The notes: generated by a model not told the origin, from the sequence alone. A stretch of DNA of 64,000 bases from a virus (IMGVR_UViG_3300020439_000004:1-64000), one strand, 5' to 3'. Positions 13,992 to 45,591 are shown, numbered from the stretch's first letter. Made by a program: numbers and translations.

Positions 13992-14930
13992 ATGCAAAAA
14001 GTAAACGAAGTCTTCAAAGACGCAATTGGACAGGATTCTGTCAAAAAGACATTGAGTGTCTATATAGATGCTTATAAGAAAACAAATCGTATGCCCTTCT
14101 TGAATTTCACTACTCAAAAGGGTGGCGGTAAAACATTCTTCGCTCGTAAGTTTAGAGAAGCTCTACAGCGAACAGATGGTAGTAGACCTCCAATGCTTGA
14201 GGTCAATGGTAAAACAATAAAAAACGCAAATAGTTTCTTCGAACAAGTTTATCCAGTTTGGATACAGAACAAAGCACATTTGTTTATTGATGAAGGACAT
14301 AATTTGCCTAATGAATTACAGCAGATTTTTCTTTCTGTTTTTAATGTGGATAAGAATCCTATTAGAACAGTTGAGCATGATACTATTCCATACACTTTTG
14401 ATTTTAGAGAAATATCATTCTGCATGGCAACTACAGATCAGCAGAAGTTAGCTGAACCATTGAGAGATCGTCTTCGTGATATTGCTTTTGAAGAATATTC
14501 AAATGAAGATCTATATAGTATATTTTATGATAACATGGAGAATAAAGCAGATATAAAGCAGAGCGTACAGGAAGATATTGTTTCTACTTTTAGAGGTAAC
14601 CCCAGAGATGCGGTTGTTAAAGCAGAAGATTTAAAAACATTCGTTTCTGCTAGATCTTTAAAGGAGATAACAAAATATGTATGGCAGGATTTCTGTAAGA
14701 CTATGGGAATACTTAAATACGGCTTAACTGCTTCTGAGATGTCAATCATAAAAACTCTTGGAGAAAGAGGGGCTATGTCATTGACTGGATTGTCTTCAAT
14801 CACTGGATTCCAAAAAGGAGCTATCCAGAAAGATTATGAAGCAATATTAATCAAGAAGAATCTAATGAAAATAGACTCTAAAAGAGAATTAACTAAAAAA
14901 GGATTGGATCTTGCAAGAGCTATTGCTTAA
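13992..14930 (+). CDS. ruvB: RuvB-like AAA+ ATPase (Holliday junction branch-migration helicase family)
   Basis: IGQD, Walker A variant KGGGKT, Walker B LFIDEGH, ATT, PLRDR, GNPR and a C-terminal winged-helix-like region. Confidence 0.8.
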   Translation: MQKVNEVFKDAIGQDSVKKTLSVYIDAYKKTNRMPFLNFTTQKGGGKTFFARKFREALQRTDGSRPPMLEVNGKTIKNANSFFEQVYPVWIQNKAHLFIDEGHNLPNELQQIFLSVFNVDKNPIRTVEHDTIPYTFDFREISFCMATTDQQKLAEPLRDRLRDIAFEEYSNEDLYSIFYDNMENKADIKQSVQEDIVSTFRGNPRDAVVKAEDLKTFVSARSLKEITKYVWQDFCKTMGILKYGLTASEMSIIKTLGERGAMSLTGLSSITGFQKGAIQKDYEAILIKKNLMKIDSKRELTKKGLDLARAIA

Positions 14931-23394: not shown

Positions 23395-23907
23395 ATGAAA
23401 GCTAAACCACTACCACCGCTAGAAGAATTAAAAGAATTCTTAGATTATAATCCAGATACAGGGATATTTACTTGGATAAAAAAACCAAGTAAAAAAATAA
23501 AAGTTGGTCAACAAGCTGGAAAAATGCATACTAAAGGTTACATCCAGATTACATTTAGAGGATTTTTATATCTTGCTCATAGATTAGCTTATTATATGTA
23601 TCATGGTGTAGACCCACTGGAAAACCTTGTAGACCATAAATACGGGGATAAGACTAATAACAAGATTAAGAATTTAAGATTAGCGAATAAATTTCAAAAT
23701 AGTACGAATCGTGTTAATTTACCTAGTAATAATAATAGCGGTGTAATAGGAGTGTGTTGGGATAAAAACGCTAAAAAGTGGAGATCGCAGATTGTAGTAA
23801 ATAAAGTTCAAAAACACTTAGGATTTTTCATTAATAAAGAAGATGCAATAAAAGCCCGTAGAGAAGCAGAGATAAAATATTTTGGTGACTTTCGGGGCAA
23901 TATTTAA
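23395..23907 (+). CDS. HNH endonuclease with AP2 domain
   Basis: LDYNPDTGIFTW, AHRLAY, VDH..GDKTNNKIKNLR, SGVIGV.W..KWRSQI..HLGFF. Confidence 0.9.
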   Translation: MKAKPLPPLEELKEFLDYNPDTGIFTWIKKPSKKIKVGQQAGKMHTKGYIQITFRGFLYLAHRLAYYMYHGVDPLENLVDHKYGDKTNNKIKNLRLANKFQNSTNRVNLPSNNNSGVIGVCWDKNAKKWRSQIVVNKVQKHLGFFINKEDAIKARREAEIKYFGDFRGNI

Positions 23908-24138: not shown

Positions 24139-24404
24139 GCTAGTTTGTGGGATATTTTAGCAAATAAAAGCTAATTCTAGCTTATTTCTTGCGTTTAATT
24201 TAAATTAATAAAAATTAATTTAAATTAATTAATATTATTTTTTATTATTTTTTATTCGAATTTAAATTAATAAAAATACAATTTAAATTAATTTTTATTC
24301 GTGCCAGAATGTCAGATATTGGGCGTAATAAAGGGCGCTAGGTTGTCGGATATTTTCCTTAATAAGCGAAGCTAGAATGTCAGATATTTTTCTTAATAAG
24401 TGTA
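24139..24404. repeat. iteron-like 34-bp imperfect tandem repeats in AT-rich intergenic DNA
   Basis: GCyAGnnTGTCrGATATT units at 24303, 24337 and 24371 (34-bp period) plus a diverged copy at 24139. Confidence 0.75.
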
Positions 24405-24953: not shown

Positions 24954-25460
24954 ATGCACCCAAATAAACTAATTCATATTCAGCTATTCGCCATTAATAA
25001 ACTAAAAGAATTTGGTCTTTTCGAGCAGGGATGGAGGTTTGTGTGGGATAAATCTGTTTGTAGATATGGCCAGTGTAGACATACTAAAAAAGAAATTGGT
25101 ATTAGCAAAAAATTAACACAAATAAATGAAATAAGCGAATCAGAGGACACCGTACTGCATGAGCTTGCTCATGCACTCGTAGGCAGTGGACATGGACATA
25201 ACGCTGTATGGAAGCAAATGTGTGTTAAGATAGGTGCAAAGCCTGAGAGTTGCTACAAGGATGAAGACCATGGTGGCAAGGTTAAATCAGTAAAACCCAA
25301 ATATATAGTTGTTAATAAAGATACAGGTGAAATCTACTGTAGATATCATAGAAGACCGAAGATTAAAGATTGGTCTACTAGGTGGATAGGCGGCAAGAAG
25401 GCAGAAACATATGGTAAGCTAGAATTAAGGTCAGCGCTAGGTTGTAGGTTAAAGCTATAA
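24954..25460 (+). CDS. SprT-like zinc metalloprotease
   Basis: YGQC...I.IS, DTVLHELAHAL, HGHNAVWKQMCVKIG. Confidence 0.85.
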   Translation: MHPNKLIHIQLFAINKLKEFGLFEQGWRFVWDKSVCRYGQCRHTKKEIGISKKLTQINEISESEDTVLHELAHALVGSGHGHNAVWKQMCVKIGAKPESCYKDEDHGGKVKSVKPKYIVVNKDTGEIYCRYHRRPKIKDWSTRWIGGKKAETYGKLELRSALGCRLKL

Positions 25461-25528
25461 TAAACAAATAAGTGTGTTGTAGTTTTTCTTATTATTTATA
25501 TTATTACTTTATTTAGAGGTTAACTTCT

Positions 25529-25607
25529 GAAAGTCATTGAGGCTTAGGGAGTTACACCGCTGGCGGTATGCCGCGCCCGCCTAACTCGTTGGTATCCAAC
25601 GACTTAC
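25529..25607. repeat. tripartite palindromic element copy 1
   Basis: GAAAGTCATTG-AGGCT-TAGGGAGTTAC / 25-bp spacer containing GCGGTATGCCGC / CTAACTCGTTG-GTATC-CAACGACTTAC. Confidence 0.9.
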
Positions 25608-25734
25608 GACATTTTTTCTTATTTAATCGCTTCTTTTTATCCGTGTGGCTAGTGGTGGGCGGTGGCATCGGGTGGCGCACCATGTTTCTACCCTCTAGTG
25701 AGTTAGTCGGCAATTTTGGTTTCTTCTTTTTCAT
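25552..25734 (-). CDS. small basic protein
   Basis: MKKKKPK...RHPMPPPT...DKKK...KKKCRK; its 3' end runs through element 1. Confidence 0.5.
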   Translation of the reverse strand: MKKKKPKLPTNSLEGRNMVRHPMPPPTTSHTDKKKRLNKKKCRKSLDTNELGGRGIPPAV

Positions 25735-25747
25735 AATCTTTTTTTCA

Positions 25748-25849
25748 TGCACCAGTTAGGTGATCAACAGAGGGAAAGAAAAGGGCAATATGAGAAACCC
25801 TGAAACCCTCGTTCTAGGATCTCCCTAGACTCTACTCCTAACTGATGCA
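25748..25849 (-). ncRNA. candidate structured RNA (three-way junction)
   Basis: 13-bp closing stem TGCATCAGTTAGG/CCTAACTGGTGCA; inner TCTAGG/CCTAGA and GAGGG/CCCTC. Confidence 0.5.
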
Positions 25850-25866
25850 CAATTTACCAAAACAAA

Positions 25867-26659
25867 TTATTTTTTATTTTTAGCCATCTGTTCTTGATAG
25901 CTATTATTCATTTGATCTCTAAAACTGTATGTTCCTATTCCCTTCTTGCGAAGCCATGCTTCGCAAGCATCCCCCACAATCTTAGAAAGATTTTCATACG
26001 TTTCTTTTTTTTCTTGGTCTATTATATTTGGCTCGTGCTGTATACTTCTCATGTTAAAAACTGAATTACTGTTACAAAAAGTGTGATTACTATTAAACTA
26101 AAAAGGATTGTATCGCTTGGCATTTTTTTAAATGCTCATGCCGTCTTTTAATGTACCACGCCTATCTTTATAGATCAACTCAATTACCATTTTTTCTATC
26201 GGGTCATTCTCTACAAAGTAAGGCGGTAATTCATCTAGAACTTCTGAACCGTCTATATGTGGAATCTTCTTAAACATCTTTGCTTGATATGTCTTAACGG
26301 CATTCATTAAGCCCTTGCTGTTATCGTACTTGATGTCTAGTAGAACTTGTGTCTCTTCTAGGAAAACACGAATTTGATTTGTGTGATTAGCTGTCATTTT
26401 TTTGTCTTTCTTCTCTTACTGATATTACTAAAGTTTCTCTCATTGGATCAAACTTGCAATCCAAAAGTGTTTCTATATATTGCATATCCTCGCTGCAATT
26501 CATGCAAACGGGAGTTCCATTGTCTTCGTACCAGTCAGGGCTAACCTCTACGGTATGAACTGAGCTATTCCATTTTATACCTTCAGGATCATTGCGTCCA
26601 TCACAAACACATCTCCAACGGTGTAAAATCTTTTCGTCTTTTATTGGTCTCCAACCCAT
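25867..26659 (-). CDS. three small hypothetical genes (25867-26052, 26128-26397, 26387-26659)
   Basis: Same strand as the block; the last has a CxC...CxxC zinc-binding pattern. Confidence 0.55.
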
Positions 26660-26660
26660 C

Positions 26661-27374
26661 TTATTTCTTCTGGTTTTGTTGTTCCGATTCCGACTTTACC
26701 TTCACAACAAATCCCGAATTGTCGTGCTTGGCTTTGCCTTTTGCTTCTAGTCCGATTATTTTACCATGAGGATCAGTAAAACGCAAGTCATGATCGTCGC
26801 CACTGATTACTTCCATGCCCTCCCAAGTATTTGGAATCTCATCAAACACAACTGCAACATTACCGCCTTTTTTAATTACTTCTTTTATAAACTCAGTATC
26901 TGTCGTTTCGTCTCTGCTAAAAGTAAGATGATAGTTGTGGGGCATTTCATGAGAAAGAAACGCCATTATTCTTTCTTTGCTTTTAGTATAGTCATAGAAC
27001 TGATGTTTTGGGAACTCTTGCATGATGCCATATTTTTCCCAACGGATATCACTTGTTAAGTTTAAACGAAAACAAACGCTCATTTGTTTACGTGCCGCAA
27101 ACCTTATGCCCGCTTGAATGTCCTTCACTAACTGAAGCACAAACTCAAACTTATTCTCATAGAACTTATTTGTTTTGTTTATTCTAGCCTCTTGAACCAT
27201 TTTCATCATGCCCCGCCCTGCTGTATTTAAACAAGCTGCTGCACATCCTGCACTAGCATTAGGACAAACATTCCGCCCCGACAAAGTAGACGGTGCGAAG
27301 TGAAGACCGTAAGTGATAAAACCTTTTTGGAATCCTTTTAGGATTTTAGAATTGCTTAGTGTTAAGTATCTCAT
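26661..27374 (-). CDS. phage gp88-family protein
   Basis: NVCP.AS.GC...CLNTAGRG, RLNLTSD, FYDYTK, NYHLTFS, GD.HDLRF.DP, GL.AKGKAK. Confidence 0.8.
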   Translation of the reverse strand: MRYLTLSNSKILKGFQKGFITYGLHFAPSTLSGRNVCPNASAGCAAACLNTAGRGMMKMVQEARINKTNKFYENKFEFVLQLVKDIQAGIRFAARKQMSVCFRLNLTSDIRWEKYGIMQEFPKHQFYDYTKSKERIMAFLSHEMPHNYHLTFSRDETTDTEFIKEVIKKGGNVAVVFDEIPNTWEGMEVISGDDHDLRFTDPHGKIIGLEAKGKAKHDNSGFVVKVKSESEQQNQKK

Positions 27375-27375
27375 A

Positions 27376-27621
27376 TTAATCTATAACTATATTTGTGTTG
27401 TCTAACAATATCTGAAAATCGGTTACTTGTAAATCAGTTTGTAGATATTTCTTTTTTTGTTTTTTTATTTCTTTTACTGCACCATCATAAGTAAACCATC
27501 CGTTAATTGTTTGGTCGCCATTGCGATGTGTCAAAAAGACTTGAAAGTCTCTTTTGTTTTTGTTTATGTGAATTGGATATCCTTCTGTGGTTATTGGTAA
27601 ACCGTTTTTTCTTGTCTTCAT
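27376..27621 (-). CDS. hypothetical protein
   Basis: Start moved to MKTRKNG, after the promoter TTGACT-N16-TATGTT. Confidence 0.55.
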   Translation of the reverse strand: MKTRKNGLPITTEGYPIHINKNKRDFQVFLTHRNGDQTINGWFTYDGAVKEIKKQKKKYLQTDLQVTDFQILLDNTNIVID

Positions 27622-27725
27622 ATGTATAAACATAGCACCAGCGATTAAAAAGTCAATTTAAATTAATTTTTATTATTTTTTATTATTTGCTTGACTTATT
27701 CTTTTTGTGTGTTCAATGTTTGTCT

Positions 27726-27804
27726 ATAACTCCTTGAGTATCAAGGAGTTACGAAGGCGCGGCATGCCGCGCCGCCCCTAAGTCGTTGATACTTAACGAC
27801 TTAC
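27726..27804. repeat. tripartite palindromic element copy 2
   Basis: ATAACTCCTTG-AGTAT-CAAGGAGTTAC / 25 bp containing GGCGCGGCATGCCGCGCC / CTAAGTCGTTG-ATACT-TAACGACTTAC. Confidence 0.95.
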
Positions 27805-27842
27805 AGAACTTTTTACTTTATTACGTGTCAAGTTAAAAACAC

Positions 27843-27870
27843 AAAAAAAACCCGACCCTTTCGGGTCGGG
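27843..27870 (-). terminator. intrinsic terminator
   Basis: CCCGACCC-GAAA-GGGTCGGG followed by T8 on the - strand, after the DUF932 gene. Confidence 0.9.
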
Positions 27871-27890
27871 CGTGGCGAGTGCTTCCCCAC

Positions 27891-28715
27891 TTACGCGGGT
27901 AAGGCAACCTCTTCAGCTTCCACGATCACCGAGCGGTGACCTGCGACACCGTCAAAGATGCTCTGCATCTTCATGGTGCGCTCTGGGAGCTTGGACAAAT
28001 CGCCGCCCTTGAGATTCTCAGTGACAGCGTTGTAGAGGTTCCAGAGGGTGTTGCCTCTGAACTCAGGGTGACGAGGGTCACGGAACTCCTTGACCGTCTT
28101 GTAGACATCCCTCTCAGGAAGTGCCTTGTACTCGGCAAGGTCAACAGCAAGGTTGCTCGCAACCTCTGGGGAAATCTCAGTCTCCTTATAAGCTGAGATC
28201 CTCTGACCCATATCAGCCCAAGATGAGCGGATACGGCTGATAGCCTTGGCTAGCATACCGTCAAGATCCCGAAGGATATTAACAGTGTGTCTGCGAGCGA
28301 GCTTAACGTCAGACGAAAAGCACATATTGTCGCAAACCAACATGGAGTTACCCATGCAAGCGGAAGCCGCTGTGGACTTGTCGCTTGAGTTACGTAGCCC
28401 GAAGACCAAACGGCGATCATCGCCTGTGATGCCCTCACCTCTGAGAGCGAAGCCACCGAAGTAGCGTTGACCCCCTCTAGCGAGGGCGTGTTCCTCCTCC
28501 GAGATGGAGAAACCTGCTTTACCTAAAGCCTTACGTGCCTTAGAGACAAGTAGGCTGTGTGGGATCGGCGTATGAGTAGCCGTCTTTTCAGGCGTTTTTA
28601 CCGCCTTAAGCTGATCTTCTACGGATAGAAGCTCACGCTCTCTGCGAGTCCAAACCGACCCTGCCGTTGGCAAGGTGATTGGCTCCAGTTTGTTTTTTGC
28701 ATATATCAATGCCAT
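27891..28715 (-). CDS. DUF932-family protein
   Basis: TP..T.TH.PIPH, GLRNS.DKS, VCDNM, RRHT, TLWNLYNAVTE; visibly GC-richer; start moved to MALIY. Confidence 0.75.
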   Translation of the reverse strand: MALIYAKNKLEPITLPTAGSVWTRRERELLSVEDQLKAVKTPEKTATHTPIPHSLLVSKARKALGKAGFSISEEEHALARGGQRYFGGFALRGEGITGDDRRLVFGLRNSSDKSTAASACMGNSMLVCDNMCFSSDVKLARRHTVNILRDLDGMLAKAISRIRSSWADMGQRISAYKETEISPEVASNLAVDLAEYKALPERDVYKTVKEFRDPRHPEFRGNTLWNLYNAVTENLKGGDLSKLPERTMKMQSIFDGVAGHRSVIVEAEEVALPA

Positions 28716-28878
28716 GCCCAACTATAACCGCAAAAAAGAAAATGTGCAAGCACTAAAAACAAAAAAAAGAAAAAAAATCGCTCCAACATTGCCCGATATT
28801 TAGTCAAATATTTACTTGACAAAAAAACTTTATTTTTTAGTTGACAAGGGATTACATAGTAAAAGAGTAGTAATGTGT

Positions 28879-28957
28879 GTAACTCGTTGAGTATCAACGA
28901 GTTAGGGCGGCGCGGCATACCGCCATCTTCGTAACTCGTTCAGGGTGAACGAGTTAT
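28879..28957. repeat. tripartite palindromic element copy 3 (inverted relative to the others)
   Basis: GTAACTCGTTG-AGTAT-CAACGAGTTAG / 25 bp / GTAACTCGTTC-AGGGT-GAACGAGTTAT; reverse complement of the spacer aligns with copies 1 and 2. Confidence 0.95.
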
Positions 28958-28974
28958 AGAGAAAGTTAACAGAA

Positions 28975-29255
28975 CAAAAAGAAACCGCCGATAGGACAAC
29001 AACTATGAAAACCTATCGACGGCTCCCCTACTGGCGGGAGCGCTCCGTTGGGGCTTGCCTCCAGTATTTAGGTTTGGGATTGTTTCTCACTCTCGGAGCT
29101 GGCGGTAAATCCCTTTATAACCATACCAATGTTTCATCGTCACTTACCTACAACTTTTGTGCTGTAGGAGGCTAAGTTTAGGAAAACAGCTTGTCCGTCA
29201 TGTCAGGACTGAGGTATCTATCAAAGACCTCACTGTGTCTAAACTCGGTGACTAT
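28975..29255 (-). ncRNA. candidate ~280-nt highly structured ncRNA ending in a terminator-like hairpin
   Basis: Nested helices with G-U pairs favouring the - strand; no convincing ORF. Confidence 0.6.
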
Positions 29256-29262
29256 ACCCTTC

Positions 29263-29481
29263 CTAGGATTGTTCTGCGTTTAACGCAAATTTTTCGTTTA
29301 ATGTATTAGCGTGTTTGCGTGTCCACTTTACATTATCAATGAAGTGGTCAAGTTTATCATCTGCCACCTCTGACATTCTTTCTGCCAAGGTCTGATGTAC
29401 TACACCAAGCGCATAATTTAAAAGCGTTGCTTGGTCTTTGTTTTTCACTTCAATGCGAACTGATTCGGATGTCTTTGCCAT
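29263..29481 (-). CDS. hypothetical protein
   Basis: 72 aa ORF between two structured elements. Confidence 0.65.
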   Translation of the reverse strand: MAKTSESVRIEVKNKDQATLLNYALGVVHQTLAERMSEVADDKLDHFIDNVKWTRKHANTLNEKFALNAEQS

Positions 29482-29521
29482 GTTAGTTATAGTTTTATTT
29501 TTATATTATTGTGATTGATTT

Positions 29522-29588
29522 TGTAGGCTAGGGCGACGAGACCATGATCCCCTCAGAAAAAATCTCGCCACCCTTCACTATACCTACA
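29522..29588 (-). ncRNA. candidate intergenic RNA hairpin
   Basis: TGTAGG/CCTACA enclosing AGGGTGGCGAGA/TCTCGTCGCCCT (two G-U pairs on the - strand). Confidence 0.5.
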
Positions 29589-29846
29589 TTATACTATGAC
29601 ATCTATACTGTCAACATATAAATTTCTGTACTTCTCAGTGCCAGAGTCATCAACGTCTGAAACTTTTGCGGTTATAAACTGCTCGCTTGTTTCAACGTGT
29701 CTGCCAACTCTGTCAATGGAGTTGATTTTAAAAGTTCTAGTTCTATCTCCTGTAACAGAAGATTCTTTTTTTGTGTTTGTGTATCTAACAGTTTTACCTG
29801 CTAAGAATGATGCTAGTTGTGTAGGATTTAAGTGTTCTAATTTCAT
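29589..29846 (-). CDS. hypothetical protein (possibly SH3/Sm-like barrel)
   Basis: Own promoter; beta-rich pattern ending YRNLYVDSI. Confidence 0.6.
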   Translation of the reverse strand: MKLEHLNPTQLASFLAGKTVRYTNTKKESSVTGDRTRTFKINSIDRVGRHVETSEQFITAKVSDVDDSGTEKYRNLYVDSIDVIV

Positions 29847-29889
29847 ATAGGTAATTTAGCACATATTTAAAATGGGTGCAAGTATTTTT

Positions 29890-30096
29890 TTATTTTTTTG
29901 TTAAAGGTTTCGCTTCAACGTCAGAGATGTCAGTGCCGACAAACCTAACATTAAACTCAAGTTGATCGTTGGGTTCATCAGGATTATGAAGAAGATCTTT
30001 AGCAACGATTTCGCCATTTTCAACAAAGAGGCAAAAACCTCCATCTACAGCGGCACTATTTAGATGTGCCATTATTTCATCAATTCTATTTTTCAT
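29890..30096 (-). CDS. hypothetical protein
   Basis: Start moved to MKNRIDE by promoter position. Confidence 0.65.
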   Translation of the reverse strand: MKNRIDEIMAHLNSAAVDGGFCLFVENGEIVAKDLLHNPDEPNDQLEFNVRFVGTDISDVEAKPLTKK

Positions 30097-30161
30097 ATAA
30101 GGTAATTTAGCATAGGTTGAAATTAATTGCAAGTATTTTTTTGTATTTAAATTAATTTTTT

Positions 30162-30341
30162 TTAGAGGTAAGCCGAGTCGAATAATCCATTTACTTCTTT
30201 TATAAGCGAGTCAACTTTTTCTTCTATGTCTACCGAAGCGAACTTCATAGCGTCTGGATCATATGATTCTACCATGTCCATTTTGAAGTCGTTAAGTATA
30301 GCGTTCAAATCTTCTATTAATTCTTTTGCGGTTGTGTCCAT
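30162..30341 (-). CDS. 59-aa acidic protein (below ORF-track cutoff)
   Basis: MDTTAKELIEDLN...DSAYL; own promoter TTGACA-N17-TACAGT. Confidence 0.65.
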   Translation of the reverse strand: MDTTAKELIEDLNAILNDFKMDMVESYDPDAMKFASVDIEEKVDSLIKEVNGLFDSAYL

Positions 30342-30444
30342 GGCGTACTGTACAGGTTAAAGGCGAAGGTGTCAAATATTTATTTATATTTTTCCGTGCA
30401 AGGTTGTAGGTTATACTAACAAATACCAAATATTGCTTGACAAC

Positions 30445-30590
30445 GTAACTCGTTGAGTATCAACGAGTTATGAAGATGACGACTTGGTACTTTATTCAAG
30501 TAGAAACTTCTGTATGTCGTTGGTTATCAAGGAGTTACACATTCGGCGACATGCCGCGTCGTCGTAACTCCCTCAGTATCAAGGAGTTAC
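30445..30590. repeat. tripartite element copy 4 (30512-30590) plus a solo arm (30445-30471)
   Basis: Solo GTAACTCGTTG-AGTAT-CAACGAGTTAT; then GTATGTCGTTG-GTTAT-CAAGGAGTTAC / 25 bp containing GCGACATGCCGC / GTAACTCCCTC-AGTAT-CAAGGAGTTAC. Confidence 0.9.
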
Positions 30591-30710
30591 GAGGCTTTTA
30601 TGCGATTACCTCAAGGCGATGAAAAATTAACCAGACCAGAACTGCCCGCCGCAATGCCTAACTCTTTACTAAAACTCTAACATTATTCTAACACTAACAA
30701 AACTCTAACA

Positions 30711-31454
30711 CTACCCGAATCTTTTTTTTATGATCATGTCGCACAACTCCTCTAACTGATCAACAATTTCTTTTTTGTTCTCTTTGAATCGTAGATCATT
30801 GTGCATGAAGTGAAGCTTGAATTTTATATCTGCTAACTCTCTTAAAAGATTACTTCTATTTTGATTTTGAATTTTTTCAGTCATGATTTTTATTACAATG
30901 TTAGTTTACTGAAAGGTGTCTGCCAATCGGTCGGGTCTTTCTCGCCGAAGACTATTGCGTCGGTTCTCTCGCTATGATCTGCGAGAGCTTTATCAAGGCG
31001 AGCTTCAAGGCGCTTGAAGTTTTCAGCAGTGTCAGTGCTGATGTTCAGATCCATAGCCATAGCCTGAGCTTGACCAGATGCACCGATGACCTCCGCGCGG
31101 AGTTGATCGGCGATTTTCATTAACTCAATTATTTGTTCATCATTTTTCATAACGTAAGTATAGTGTAGATTTGAATTAAAAGCAAGTTTTTTTTTATTAG
31201 TCTATGGAGTTTATAACTGAGAGGTGGGCTAAAAGCATGAGAGAGCTTTCATTCCTTTTCAGATCCGAACCTTTGCCTTGTTTGCAAAGTCCTATAGCGT
31301 TATTAACCATGTGTTTACAGAATGCAAGCTCTGCTTCAGATTTAAGATTAAGATCTCTAGCAATTTGAAAGTTTAGAAGATCTGCGTCTTCAGTGAAACG
31401 AGGCGCTGATTTGACTACCGCCTCCGCGATTTTTAAAGTAATTTTATCTTTCAT
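30711..31454 (-). CDS. three small helical hypothetical genes (30711-30884, 30893-31150, 31197-31454)
   Basis: The last two have their own promoters; the first is below the ORF-track cutoff. Confidence 0.6.
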
Positions 31455-31562
31455 GATTATACTATAGCACACTTTCAGAAAAAAGCAAGTAAAAAAAGTA
31501 TTTTTTATTTATTTTTATTTATTTTTATTTTTCGCTTGACAAAGGTTTTCGTAAAAACTTAC

Positions 31563-31642
31563 GTAAGTCGTTGAGTGTGAAGGAGTTGCAGCCGCCGCGG
31601 TATGCCGCCGCCCGCGTAACCCGTTGATTTTCAACGAGTTAC
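31563..31642. repeat. tripartite element copy 5
   Basis: GTAAGTCGTTG-AGTGT-GAAGGAGTTGC / 26 bp containing GCGGTATGCCGC / GTAACCCGTTG-ATTTT-CAACGAGTTAC. Confidence 0.9.
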
Positions 31643-31657
31643 GCAAGATTTTACTGG

Positions 31658-32227
31658 TCAATCCCAGTAGTCCCAGATGACCTTGTTGCCCCTTTTCAGC
31701 ACGAAATGGCTCATGGTAGGCACACCCTGCGCCCCGTAGTGGCGGGTGGTCACAGAGCATTCTGGCCCCTTGTACTCACCCCTGTTGCTCCTACGGCGGG
31801 GGTTCATGGCACAGGCCAACTTAGGCGAGCGCGACATGGACACGGTGACCTCCTCGCCGTGGTCCCAGTTGCCGCCGCAAGATGGCGGGTTGCATTCGTA
31901 TGTGGTGCGGGTCAAGATGAATAGATTTGAATTTCTCATGATGTAACTATAGCACAGATTAGAATTAAAAGCAAGAACTTTTTTGTGTTTTTTTTTTGCT
32001 CACCCCTCGGTGAGCGCGTCGAGGTGCAGATCAGGCTCATCCTGCTTTGCCCATTTTGCATCCATGTGAGCGCGAGCGTCATCCATGCGGCTGTCAAGCC
32101 ACGCCTCGAATTCCTCGCGCTCCTGCGCCTCATTTAGAAGCTCGTTGATCGCGCGGTTGTCCACGCCGAACTCCGTGCCTTCGTTAGTAAGATCTCTGAT
32201 GTCTGAAGTAGTAAGTGAATTTTTCAT
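31658..32227 (-). CDS. two GC-richer hypothetical genes (31658-31939, 32000-32227)
   Basis: Each has a promoter 5-6 nt before its ATG. Confidence 0.65.
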
Positions 32228-32329
32228 GCCTGACTATACCACAGGCTAAAAGAAAAGTCAAAACTTTTTTGTTATTTTTTTCACTTTTTTTGCTTTTTTT
32301 ATTTGACAAGCTTTTGCGTAGGAACTTCT

Positions 32330-32408
32330 GTAAGTGCTTGATTATCAACGAGTTACAGCCGCGGCGGCATTCCGCGCCCGCGTAACTCCTTGAGGCTCAA
32401 CGAGTTAC
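32330..32408. repeat. tripartite element copy 6
   Basis: GTAAGTGCTTG-ATTAT-CAACGAGTTAC / 25 bp containing GCGGCATTCCGC / GTAACTCCTTG-AGGCT-CAACGAGTTAC. Confidence 0.9.
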
Positions 32409-33942
32409 GAAGATTTTTTGTCATTCCATTCTCGCCACTTTTGTAGTACAGTGTTAGGGTCTTTGTGATGTCCTAACATTATTTTAAAAGTCTCCCATGT
32501 CGGTTTTGGTTCTGTTAGGGATTCCCAAGCTTGCTTTCTTTGTTTTGGTGTCATGTTAGAGTTTAGTGCTTCTGTTAGAAAGTTTTGAGCTGACTCGCGC
32601 CAGCTCTTTAGTTTTTCTCTGCCTGATTTTGACATTGTTAGGAAACTCCGTTAAGTTTATTAACCGCTCTATTGAGCCACACCATAACGAAAGCCCACAC
32701 TAACGGAAGCCCAAACATGATGAACAAGATTGTGCCACCAGTTAAACCGTGAACGCTTTTCCTAAGTGACAGCCAAGACTCTTCTCCTAATGAGATTGCG
32801 AGCAGACAGATGAAAAGATTAAAGGCGTTTGTGATTAGACAAGTGATAGTGAACTGGTCGAACAATTGAGTAAAGAATTTTTTCATGATGTAAGTATAGT
32901 TGAATTTAAAGTTAATGCAAGTTTTTATTTTGTTATTTCTAGTTTTCTGACAGAGGCTATACTTGCGTTGAATTTTCTAGCAAAGAACCCAAGTTTTTCG
33001 TTTGTGTTTTTTGCTGTGGCTATGAGGGCATTGAGCTGTCTCATTTGCTTAAGTGTCGCCTCCTGCTTTTCCTTATCGGATAGTTGGTTGCTTTCAGAGA
33101 TCCACTGCACAAGGCTTTCAGTTGCTTTGATGGTGGCTTCAATTTTTAACATTTCTTTTGTTTTCATGTTTTAACTATAGCACAGATTTTTATTTAACGC
33201 AAGTATTTATTTTATTTTTTTTTAGAACCAAGCTTCTAAGATTTCTTCCTCTACTACTTCGAAGACCTCATCTAATTCTTTGACCTCAACGTGTACGCAG
33301 TTATCTTCAATGTGAAACACAACCCCAGTGTCAACGAACTCTAAGTTTTCGCCATGCTTGAAAGTTACATTGTCGTTTATATCTATATCAGTTATTTTCA
33401 TGTCTCTACTATACCACAGGTTCAAGTTAAACGCAAGATCTTTTTTGTTTTATTTTTCGCATCCTATGCGGGCGGCTTCACCTGTCACGGATGTGTTTTT
33501 ACCTTTATGCTCACCCTCCATGATTTCACCAGAGCAGATTGGCTCGCCATTGTGAAAGCCATAGGTGGAAGGAAAGCACTTGACCTTGTAGCCGTTAAAG
33601 GTGACAATGTAGCGAGTGCGGTTAAGGAGTTCTGGATTTATTACTAACATGTTTATACTATAGCACAGTTTAAGTTAAAAGTCAAGGATAAAAGTATATT
33701 TTTTTTTATTTTTTTATAGTCAACGTGTTGAGCATAGGCGACCAGTCACGGCTAACCATGTCAGCCAAGCTCTCGCTTATATCGTCTATAGAGTCTATAG
33801 CGATCTCCTGCTCGCCTCCGTCTTGATCGACACCCCACACAAACCCATTTTCGAAGTCTGTATCTACAACAACGAACCACTCACCGCGGGCAGTGATCTC
33901 AGTTCCATTTCCTAAACGACTAATTAATTCTTTGTTTTTCAT
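32405..33942 (-). CDS. six small early-type genes (32405-32635, 32638-32886 with two TM helices, 32925-33167, 33222-33401, 33450-33650, 33706-33942)
   Basis: Five have their own promoters; starts 33401 and 33942 corrected by promoter position. Confidence 0.7.
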
Positions 33943-34133
33943 GTGGTAAGTATACCATACATTTAGCAAAAAGTCAATGGCTAAAAGTAAAAAAATTAAA
34001 GTTTTTTTGCAGAGGGGAGGGTTTTTTGAGAATTTTTGACTTTTCAGTTGACAGTCGAAGCCGCGGGGGGTGGTGATTTCTATAAACATCTTGCCACCAA
34101 AAGCGTAATATGTGTAAAATTATTTAACTATAT

Positions 34134-45168: not shown

Positions 45169-45591
45169 ATGAGTAAGAAAAAGTCTCCAAAGAAAATGAC
45201 GGTATCTAAAGGTGTAGAAAAGAAGAATTTAGAGGAGTTTGATGTAACAGATGGTAAAGAAAGAGATAAAAAAGAAAAAGCTCTAGAAGAAGTAAAAGAG
45301 CTTGAAGAGTTGCTTGGAATGCCTCAAATGAATCCTTATGGAACCTTAAATAGAGACATCTTCAGACAAAGATTAGAGTCTTCATCCGCTTCAGATCTTA
45401 CAGATTTAGCTGCCAGAGTAGGCGTTCCTAGAGAAAGAAATATGAATCTTTTGAGGAAATCATTACTTCAATCTTTTGATTTCTATGCTCAAAAGCATAA
45501 CGTCACTGTACAAGGAAACGCTAAACCAATTATAGACCCAAGTTCCCCAGACTATGAAAAAACTGTAAAGTTATTTAAAGATTTACTATAA
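45169..45591 (+). CDS. hypothetical protein
   Basis: Own promoter TTGATA-N16-TATTAT-N6-ATG. Confidence 0.65.
   Translation: MSKKKSPKKMTVSKGVEKKNLEEFDVTDGKERDKKEKALEEVKELEELLGMPQMNPYGTLNRDIFRQRLESSSASDLTDLAARVGVPRERNMNLLRKSLLQSFDFYAQKHNVTVQGNAKPIIDPSSPDYEKTVKLFKDLL

Follow-up and report, generated by a model that had tools for sequence, protein, structure and literature searches.

What is the tripartite repeat that separates the small early genes of a marine phage without cultured relatives, and what might it do there? The question is raised by a 64,000-nt stretch (IMGVR_UViG_3300020439_000004:1-64000, hereafter the window) of a 108,942-bp virus record, 79% complete, in which a first-pass annotation had noticed six copies of a unit made of two arms, 52 bp apart, around a GC-rich centre, as well as one solo arm. 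Reading of the sequence together with a pattern scan confirmed this anatomy. The scan (TAASTCSTTG-N5-CAASGASTTA, with up to three mismatches) matched 12 arms, all between 25,582 and 32,407, where 0.03 were expected from shuffled sequences. Applied to the whole 108,942-bp record the same scan found no further arm; the element is confined to the early region, as had been proposed. The 13th arm is the degenerate left arm of the first copy.

The six units are 79–80 bp long, with an arm-to-arm spacing of 52 bp in five copies and of 53 bp in copy 5; no strand is assigned to them or to the solo arm, and their centres are GC-rich dyads resembling GCGGyATGCCGC. Copy 1 (c1, 25529–25607) consists of the degenerate left arm (25530–25554), a GC dyad and a good right arm (25582–25606). 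In c2 (27726–27804) two perfect arms (27727–27751 and 27779–27803) surround GGCGCGGCATGCCGCGCC. The arms of c3 (28879–28957) are at 28880–28904 and 28932–28956, those of c4 (30512–30590) at 30513–30537 and 30565–30589, those of c5 (31563–31642) at 31564–31588 and 31617–31641, and those of c6 (32330–32408) at 32331–32355 and 32383–32407. The solo arm occupies 30445–30471 (it starts at 30446 in the scan). Paired changes that keep the symmetry of an arm had been reported, and they are real in c2 and c3, which are perfect palindromes of sequences unlike each other; however, they are not maintained in the family as a whole, and four of the six left arms in the window (c1, c4, c5 and c6) are poor palindromes.

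An exact-pattern scan of IMG/VR provided a set of at least 118 stretches that carry the element, with 868 arms (up to four mismatches) and about 400 arm pairs. In most of these loci the neighbouring gene is phoH, as in the window, and they therefore belong to one phage family; several also have a sigma-factor gene nearby. The terminase of the window has more than 1,700 relatives at E ≤ 1e-20, those listed being 79–99% identical and coming from marine metagenomes, including Tara Oceans. Its best match among 50,697 deposited phages is only 25% identical, and neither the region nor a single unit matched the deposited phages by megablast or blastn. The family is marine and very abundant, and has no cultured relative.

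Comparison of the relatives separates what is constant in the unit from what is not. The spacing between arms is 50 bp in 190 pairs, 41–42 bp in 77, 48–53 bp in 72 and 58 bp in 46. Because it amounts to 42, 50, 52 or 58 bp depending on the lineage, the five helical turns between arm centres, which had been taken for a phased architecture, are a property of the present lineage only; loss of the 52-bp phasing among relatives, named beforehand as a refuting outcome, is what was found. The centre also differs between lineages (GACCCC-TTC-GGGGTC, for instance, where the arms are 58 bp apart, and CGGGCC-CGG-CCCG types where they are 42 bp apart), and is always GC-rich and self-complementary. Arm variants across the family include TAAACCGTTGA lineages. 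In one relative (L039), GGGAAAAAC...GTTTTTCCC encloses the unit, which folds into a single 40-bp hairpin. The tripartite unit is the sole non-coding signal of the early region that is conserved family-wide. No match to Rfam 15 was found in the window at gathering thresholds, nor with the units in 25000–33000 at E ≤ 1, and no published description of the layout was found, in agreement with the first impression that it was new. The element is a real, family-wide composite repeat, so far undescribed.

Are the arms conserved as sequences or as stems? With a pattern in which only TAA, TTG, CAA and TTA were fixed (TAA-N4-TTG-N5-CAA-N4-TTA), 384 distinct arms were collected, and their consensus is CGTAAsTCsTTGA-N3-TCAAsGAsTTACG. 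The S positions are paired in 55% and 46% of these arms, compared with 46% and 44% expected from base frequencies. Mutual information between S positions is at most 0.10, within an arm as well as between arms, and half-site variants mix freely (CG/GG 104, GC/GG 104, GG/GG 83). Alignment of 120 units from the 50-bp class gives 83.6% paired cells, compared with 82.2% when partners are shuffled, and 44% to 58% of arms are unpaired at each S position. Arm changes in 65 non-identical orthologous unit pairs comprise 82 one-sided changes that break a pair, 50 changes of the wobble type and a single compensatory change; positions 2, 9, 17, 23 and 24, within the TAA..TTG and CAA..TTA blocks, are unchanged across all these pairs. 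Neither strand shows a bias of G.U over A.C mismatches, which are equal in frequency on the sense strand. The GC content of the centre is 71%, its self-complementarity is 59% compared with 30% after shuffling, and 30 compensatory double changes were counted in it for these orthologous pairs. In conclusion, the arms are conserved as sequence, not as pairing. The simplest reading would be that the unit consists of two duplex sites for a dimeric protein, flanking a GC dyad that is constrained as a hairpin.

The position of the units was analysed family-wide with crude longest-open reading frame (ORF) gene calls. About 95% of units are intergenic, which extends to the family what had been described for most copies of the window. 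In co-directional gaps, 90 of 216 units begin no more than 20 nt past the upstream stop codon. Considering gaps of at least 90 bp, 61% of the co-directional and 61% of the convergent ones are occupied by units, compared with 34% of the divergent ones; gap occupancy thus is biased towards the 3′ ends of genes. The units failed a test as intrinsic terminators, the GC dyad being followed by a 25-bp arm and not by Ts. In the sense direction 13% of units have a T-run no more than 14 nt past their end, and in the antisense direction 25% do; in 18% of cases a canonical sense-strand terminator separates the unit from the upstream gene, and such terminators almost never come after the unit. A promoter of the type TTGnnn-N16-18-TAnnnT starts 16–50 nt downstream in 75 of the 216 cases. 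The resulting order is stop codon, terminator (when present), unit, A-rich tract, promoter and ATG.

The flanks of the units carry a further signal. TTGAC(A/T) boxes point inward in 197 of 686 flanks and outward in 103 (background 6.5%); 46 units have boxes on both sides and 55% of units have none. The distances from box to arm cluster at 4, 22–23, 33, 41 and 51 nt, so that the centre of the arm would fall near −13, +6 or +16 of a promoter at the box, counting from a standard −35. A −10-like TAnnnn is present only in the 33-nt class, sometimes with an extended TG.

In the window, the units sit in a minus-strand block of small genes (25867–34089), most of which have their own TTGnnn-17-TATAGT promoter 5–6 nt before the ATG and are leaderless. 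In the direction of the genes, a stop codon or a terminator is followed by the unit, an A/T-rich tract and the next promoter. c1 marks the end of the early block, where it faces a convergent gene. c2 comes after a DUF932 gene whose canonical intrinsic terminator (27850–27871, minus strand; a 9-bp GC stem and a T-run) sits between gene and unit, so c2 is dispensable for terminating this gene; c3 comes after a 17-bp hairpin and T-run that close a non-coding stretch. c5 starts 15 nt past the stop codon of gene 31658–31939 (minus strand), and the right arm of c6 contains the stop codon of gene 32405–32635 (minus strand). As an example of a next early promoter, c6 is followed by TTGACT-17-TATAGT at 32233–32261 (minus strand) and then by the leaderless ATG of gene 32000–32227; the start site of this promoter is about 115 bp from one arm of c6 and 167 bp from the other, both arms being upstream. 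Inward boxes are found on the plus strand at c2 (TTGACT, 27691–27696, with a T-rich tract before it and the arm 30 nt further), c3 (TTGACA, 28841–28846, arm 33 nt further, with a second TTGACA at 28816–28821), c5 (TTGACA, 31536–31541, arm 22 nt further, with no sigma-70 −10 hexamer at the right distance) and c6 (TTGACA, 32303–32308, arm 22 nt further, kept in seven of eight orthologous loci). The solo arm has a plus-strand TTGACA at 30437–30442, 3 nt before the arm. The boxes at c3, c5, c6 and the solo arm, too, have T-rich tracts upstream. All but one of the six window units have a T-run after them on the plus strand.

We tentatively favour the reading that the unit is a protein-bound boundary module between early transcription units, which would act on the upstream DNA of the next promoter, as a two-way block, or both. 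The arms would be sequence-specific duplex recognition sites for a protein that is probably dimeric; host integration host factor (IHF) and a so far undetected phage early or middle protein are the candidate binders. The centre would be a lineage-specific GC-rich dyad constrained as a hairpin. From its place between the 3′ end of one early unit and the A/T-rich sequence upstream of the next host-type leaderless promoter, the bound protein could bend or otherwise shape the upstream DNA of that promoter. It could also be a two-way roadblock or operator against transcription from either side, including transcription from the inward −35/UP-like boxes, in the manner of the 'stoperators' of phage L5 or of an operator whose centre lies at about −13, +6 or +16. 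The repeated sequence would also, as a by-product, provide homology for cassette exchange. The solo arm counts in favour of this proposal: the window, L044 and L068 share it in identical form together with its adjoining TTGACA box, while the nearby unit, c4, has many differences from its orthologues.

Several observations weigh against a boundary module of this kind. No DNA-binding candidate was found among about 40 ORFs of the window with Pfam and PHROGs (no helix-turn-helix, HU or ParB protein). The inward boxes may not be promoters, because most of them have no −10 hexamer. There is a weak excess of pairing at position 4/22 of the arms, and c2 and c3, as perfect palindromes, give very stable RNA folds (z about −7). 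Finally, the role of the GC hairpin is unexplained by a model at the level of DNA. We regard as possible, and as rather doubtful, that the arms are operators of an unrecognised regulator, common to this phage family and either encoded by the phage or hijacked from the host, and that together with the boxes and the GC hairpin they would form a two-way insulator or polymerase trap that times the shut-off of the early genes.

The readings that remain as rivals are, in this order, a phased double IHF bend, an RNA element, a recombination site and a small-RNA gene. According to the first, which is that of the first-pass annotation, both arms are IHF or HU sites, whose sharp in-phase bends would present the dyad or wrap upstream DNA onto RNA polymerase. 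We consider it unlikely. The part of it that stood is that the arms look like protein sites and embed the IHF consensus (WATCAANNNNTTR, as quoted in PMC9452768): the count of 8 of the 13 window arms with an exact match was recovered (nine matches in all), and the figure is 59% for the 384 arms of the family. On either strand an arm always reads TCAA-N4-TTR, its three central bases tend to be T-W-A (which produces WATCAA), and the positions that are constant between orthologues include the CAA and TTA of the consensus. The arms lie about 80–230 bp upstream of early start sites. IHF sites are likewise present upstream of phage early promoters in lambda (pL) and Mu (Pe). The likeness to such sites thus comprises the consensus, the distance and the strong early promoters with A/T-rich tracts; the differences are that the arms are palindromic, are paired around a GC dyad, have extra conserved positions and are variably spaced.

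The other part of this reading, the phasing, did not survive the lineage-dependent spacing of arms described above. Moreover, IHF sites are asymmetric whereas the arms are palindromic. In the IHF-H′ crystal structure the kinks are 9 bp apart, and with this geometry TTGA-N3-TCAA would be 2 bp short of what a symmetric site needs; a symmetric IHF site was dropped as a candidate on these grounds. The arms also failed a test for constraint by IHF alone. The N4 that IHF leaves free is GTCG, CTCG, GTCC, GTTG or CTCC in most half-sites, with sTCs in more than 80% of them, and the outer CG is conserved as well; conversely, variability between orthologues is among the highest at the W and A of WATCAA, and 41% of arms have no exact match. 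No HU or IHF gene was found in the phage record. IHF as the binder is a live candidate, not the best-supported reading.

Part of the case for IHF comes from a distant phage. Stenotrophomonas phage DLP6, a myovirus of the T4 superfamily, has repeats that were listed as 'phage promoters' found with PHIRE (PMC5349666; KU682439). In its sequence (KU682439.2) we counted 25 one-stranded copies of (A)AATCAACGACTTA, that is AAATCAACGACTTA[C/G], mostly in pairs 25 bp apart. Behind each pair comes a GC hairpin with a T-run that overlaps the CTTTAC −35 of a CTTTAC-17-TATAAT promoter (for example at 45313–45348, 74442–74477 and 121606–121641). AAATCAACGACTTA is present as paired direct repeats upstream of 25 promoters (PMC5349666). 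It is a textbook IHF site with a 5′ A-run, and the DLP6 motifs may be taken for pairs of IHF-type sites that precede early or middle promoters. In both phages the 11-mer TCAACGACTTA is present and is paired, near a GC hairpin and a promoter of the host type, where transcription units begin. Unlike the arms, the DLP6 motif recurs every 25 bp as a direct repeat on one strand, and both copies are upstream of the hairpin, and the full palindrome has no match in DLP6. A shared regulator was sought by tblastn of all 442 ORFs of the genome and rejected, the only matches being PhoH, RNR, a DenV-like glycosylase and a HAD phosphatase. DLP6, too, was found to have no HU or IHF gene. A host factor would fit, because the two phages share only these four proteins and neither encodes HU or IHF.

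That the unit works as RNA, folded as three hairpins or as one long hairpin, and that it terminates transcription both ways, is cut by RNase III or stabilises the 3′ ends of early mRNAs, appears to us improbable. Such a role would agree with the location of units at gene 3′ ends, with the compensatory changes in the GC centre, with the single long hairpin of L039 and with the plus-strand T-runs after most units of the window; in addition, c2, c3 and c5 fold far above shuffled sequences on both strands (z −5 to −8). However, c1 and c6 barely exceed shuffles in folding, T-runs are infrequent family-wide on either strand, and canonical terminators precede units, for example at c2 and c3. A further objection lies in the arms themselves, with their 82 pair-breaking changes against one compensatory change, their high rate of mismatch at each S position and the lack of a G.U bias.

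In favour of the proposal that the units are recombination sites which shuffle early-gene cassettes, gene order does differ between close relatives. The cassette 29888–30096 has moved to the opposite side of its neighbour in L044 and L068, and the cassette 31490–31930 (c5 and one gene) is missing from L068. Genes of 51–63% GC (27800–28700, the DUF932 gene; 31600–31900 and 32000–32200, ORFans) lie within a region of about 35% GC, and these GC-rich islands are bracketed by the unit pairs c2/c3 and c5/c6; the high-GC genes between these pairs look like imported cassettes. Many relatives have units on either side of the DUF932 gene, and one homology block, with L076, extends exactly from the edge of c5 to the edge of c6.

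That block is the only one of about 25 that is bounded by units. Nearly all ends of homology blocks with L044, L068, L048, L065 and L060 fall at seven recurring places (29888–29902, 30091–30096, 30889–30911, 31489/31931, 33221–33225, 33398–33457 and 33645–33659), which are 74–1,555 bp, mostly hundreds of base pairs, from any unit. All seven coincide with promoter-ORF repeats (D1/D2, within 29830–33706), each of 57–73 bp and comprising a promoter and a start codon; these repeats are recurrent breakpoints of cassette gain, loss and transposition relative to L044, L068, L048 and L065. For 481 units no empty site was found in the fetched loci, a set biased towards carriers. A recombinase or HU/IHF gene elsewhere in the genome had been suggested as a check, and none was found in the record: there was no match to tyrosine or serine recombinases (PF00589, PF00239) in the record, which is 79% complete, and no IS200-type (Y1) transposase. 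The core sites of tyrosine recombinases have an overlap region of 6–8 bp, and those of serine recombinases a central region of 2 bp; the 11+3+11 geometry of the arms is unlike the former. It is therefore quite improbable that the units are the crossover points, either site-specific or by homology (PeSL-, integron- or miniature inverted-repeat transposable element-like). Exchange by ordinary homologous recombination at units is nevertheless probable, because unit pairs bracket the GC islands and the DUF932 gene is often unit-flanked; units thus probably allow cassette exchange via homology, which is not evidently their primary role in this lineage.

It is very unlikely that the unit is the body of a small RNA of about 95 nt, transcribed on one or both strands from the inward TTGACA boxes and ending at the T-run: the boxes, with UP-like tracts, do point inward twice as often as outward and flank 46 units on both sides, the 33-nt class has its −10-like TAnnnn, and TTGACA, unit and T-run succeed each other on the plus strand at c2, c5, c6 and their orthologues, but the 4-nt and 22/23-nt classes (which include c5 and c6) have no usable −10, more than half of the units have no box, the arms are unconstrained as RNA stems, and Rfam gave no match.

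How does the unit compare with described systems? The closest known analogue is the PeSL (promoter-early stem-loop) of T4-type phages. There, a stem-loop comes after one gene and is followed by an A/T tract, a sigma-70-like early promoter and a further ORF. This stem-loop, adjacent to the −35, is a plain terminator hairpin whose sequence varies, and cassettes are swapped in plastic regions (PMC2839356, PMC4122927). Both are repeated composite motifs between small, mostly ORFan early genes whose cassettes are shuffled between close relatives. The order of stop codon, unit, A/T tract, promoter and ATG holds here, but the distance to the −35 varies from 16 to about 180 bp and the unit is much more elaborate than the stem-loop of a PeSL. 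In contrast to PeSL, the unit is tripartite, its arms are conserved in sequence family-wide, it mostly has no T-run, it often comes after a separate terminator, and the phage that carries it is not T4-like. In addition, the junctions lie in the promoter repeats, which are part of the PeSL-like whole, and not in the tripartite unit.

Two other systems share single features with the unit. The stoperators of the temperate mycobacteriophage L5 are asymmetric, orientation-dependent 13-bp sites of the repressor gp71, proposed to block elongating polymerase. They resemble the arms in that many copies of one protein site are scattered over short intergenic spaces bordering transcription units; they differ in that the arms are paired palindromes of 25–29 bp with no repressor known. 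The REP/BIME sequences of enterobacteria, which include the IHF-binding RIP/BIME-1, are extragenic mosaic repeats at operon 3′ ends, and similarly combine GC-rich palindromes with an IHF-type site. In the phage, however, it is the IHF-like palindromes that flank the GC hairpin, and there is no RAYT or IS200-type gene.

Some further candidates were rejected. An ECF-sigma promoter (GAACTT-N17-TCAAC) across the left flank was dropped, as AAC is found there in only 11% of flanks. FNR/CRP-type sites, dif-type sites and a CRISPR mini-array or RNA anti-CRISPR have the wrong geometry (half-site spacing; 'spacers' that are conserved dyads; full palindromes). A scan of bacterial genomes gave at least 120 matches in many phyla, mostly single hairpins by tRNA genes, misbinned phage contigs and a repeat of Latescibacterota; these matches are uninformative on host or function. 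On the Latescibacterota chromosome CBDETK010000013.1 (L181, L182, L187 and others) at least eight arm-like palindromes, TAAGTCGTTG-N5-CAAGGACTTA, are present in both orientations and abut a poly-C/G tract that ends a repeated element, possibly the end of a mobile element. In L171, L193 and L167 (Flavobacteriaceae and Spirochaetia), perfect arm-like hairpins with A- and T-run flanks lie between tRNA genes; they are probably ordinary two-way terminators with a chance likeness to the arm.

Two non-coding stretches adjoin units of the window. The first (28960–29262, minus strand), about 300 nt long and richer in GC, is a candidate early non-coding RNA without Rfam match: its folding z relative to shuffles is −2.7 on the minus strand and −1.7 on the plus strand, and it is this stretch that closes with the 17-bp hairpin and T-run directly ahead of c3. 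The second (30592–30700), beside c4, is near-identical in the window, L044 and L068, with few differences (30651–30657), while the adjoining c4 itself varies at many positions. Its conservation is probably not that of a coding sequence, because a 26-codon ORF in it is frameshifted in L044. It holds three copies of TCTAACA and a related CTAACA, a motif that is not enriched in the window.

Other features lie in or next to the early region. Three tandem 34-bp iteron-like repeats (GCYAGRWTGTCRGATATT...) at 24139–24399, next to A/T repeats with a 10-bp period (24187–24300), make this stretch a candidate replication origin adjoining the early region; locus L039 opens with similar iterons. In or flanking the early region are also genes for an HNH-AP2 homing-endonuclease-like protein (23395–23907), a RuvB-like AAA+ protein (13992–14930), which is unusual for a phage, an SprT-like protein (24954–25460) and a GP88-family protein (26661–27374).

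The early region of this family is a chain of leaderless ORFan cassettes with one promoter each, and the tripartite unit, being conserved family-wide, offers a handle on how transcription by the host polymerase is organised and switched off. The unit sequence is a precise bait for the protein that would bind it, and a marker for early regions in metagenomic contigs. The 11-mer shared with the T4-like phage DLP6 is a hint of a host factor in broad use; were this factor IHF, we would know of no natural arrays of IHF sites more regular than these. If the insulator reading is true, the leaderless early genes of these phages would be partitioned into independently controlled cassettes.

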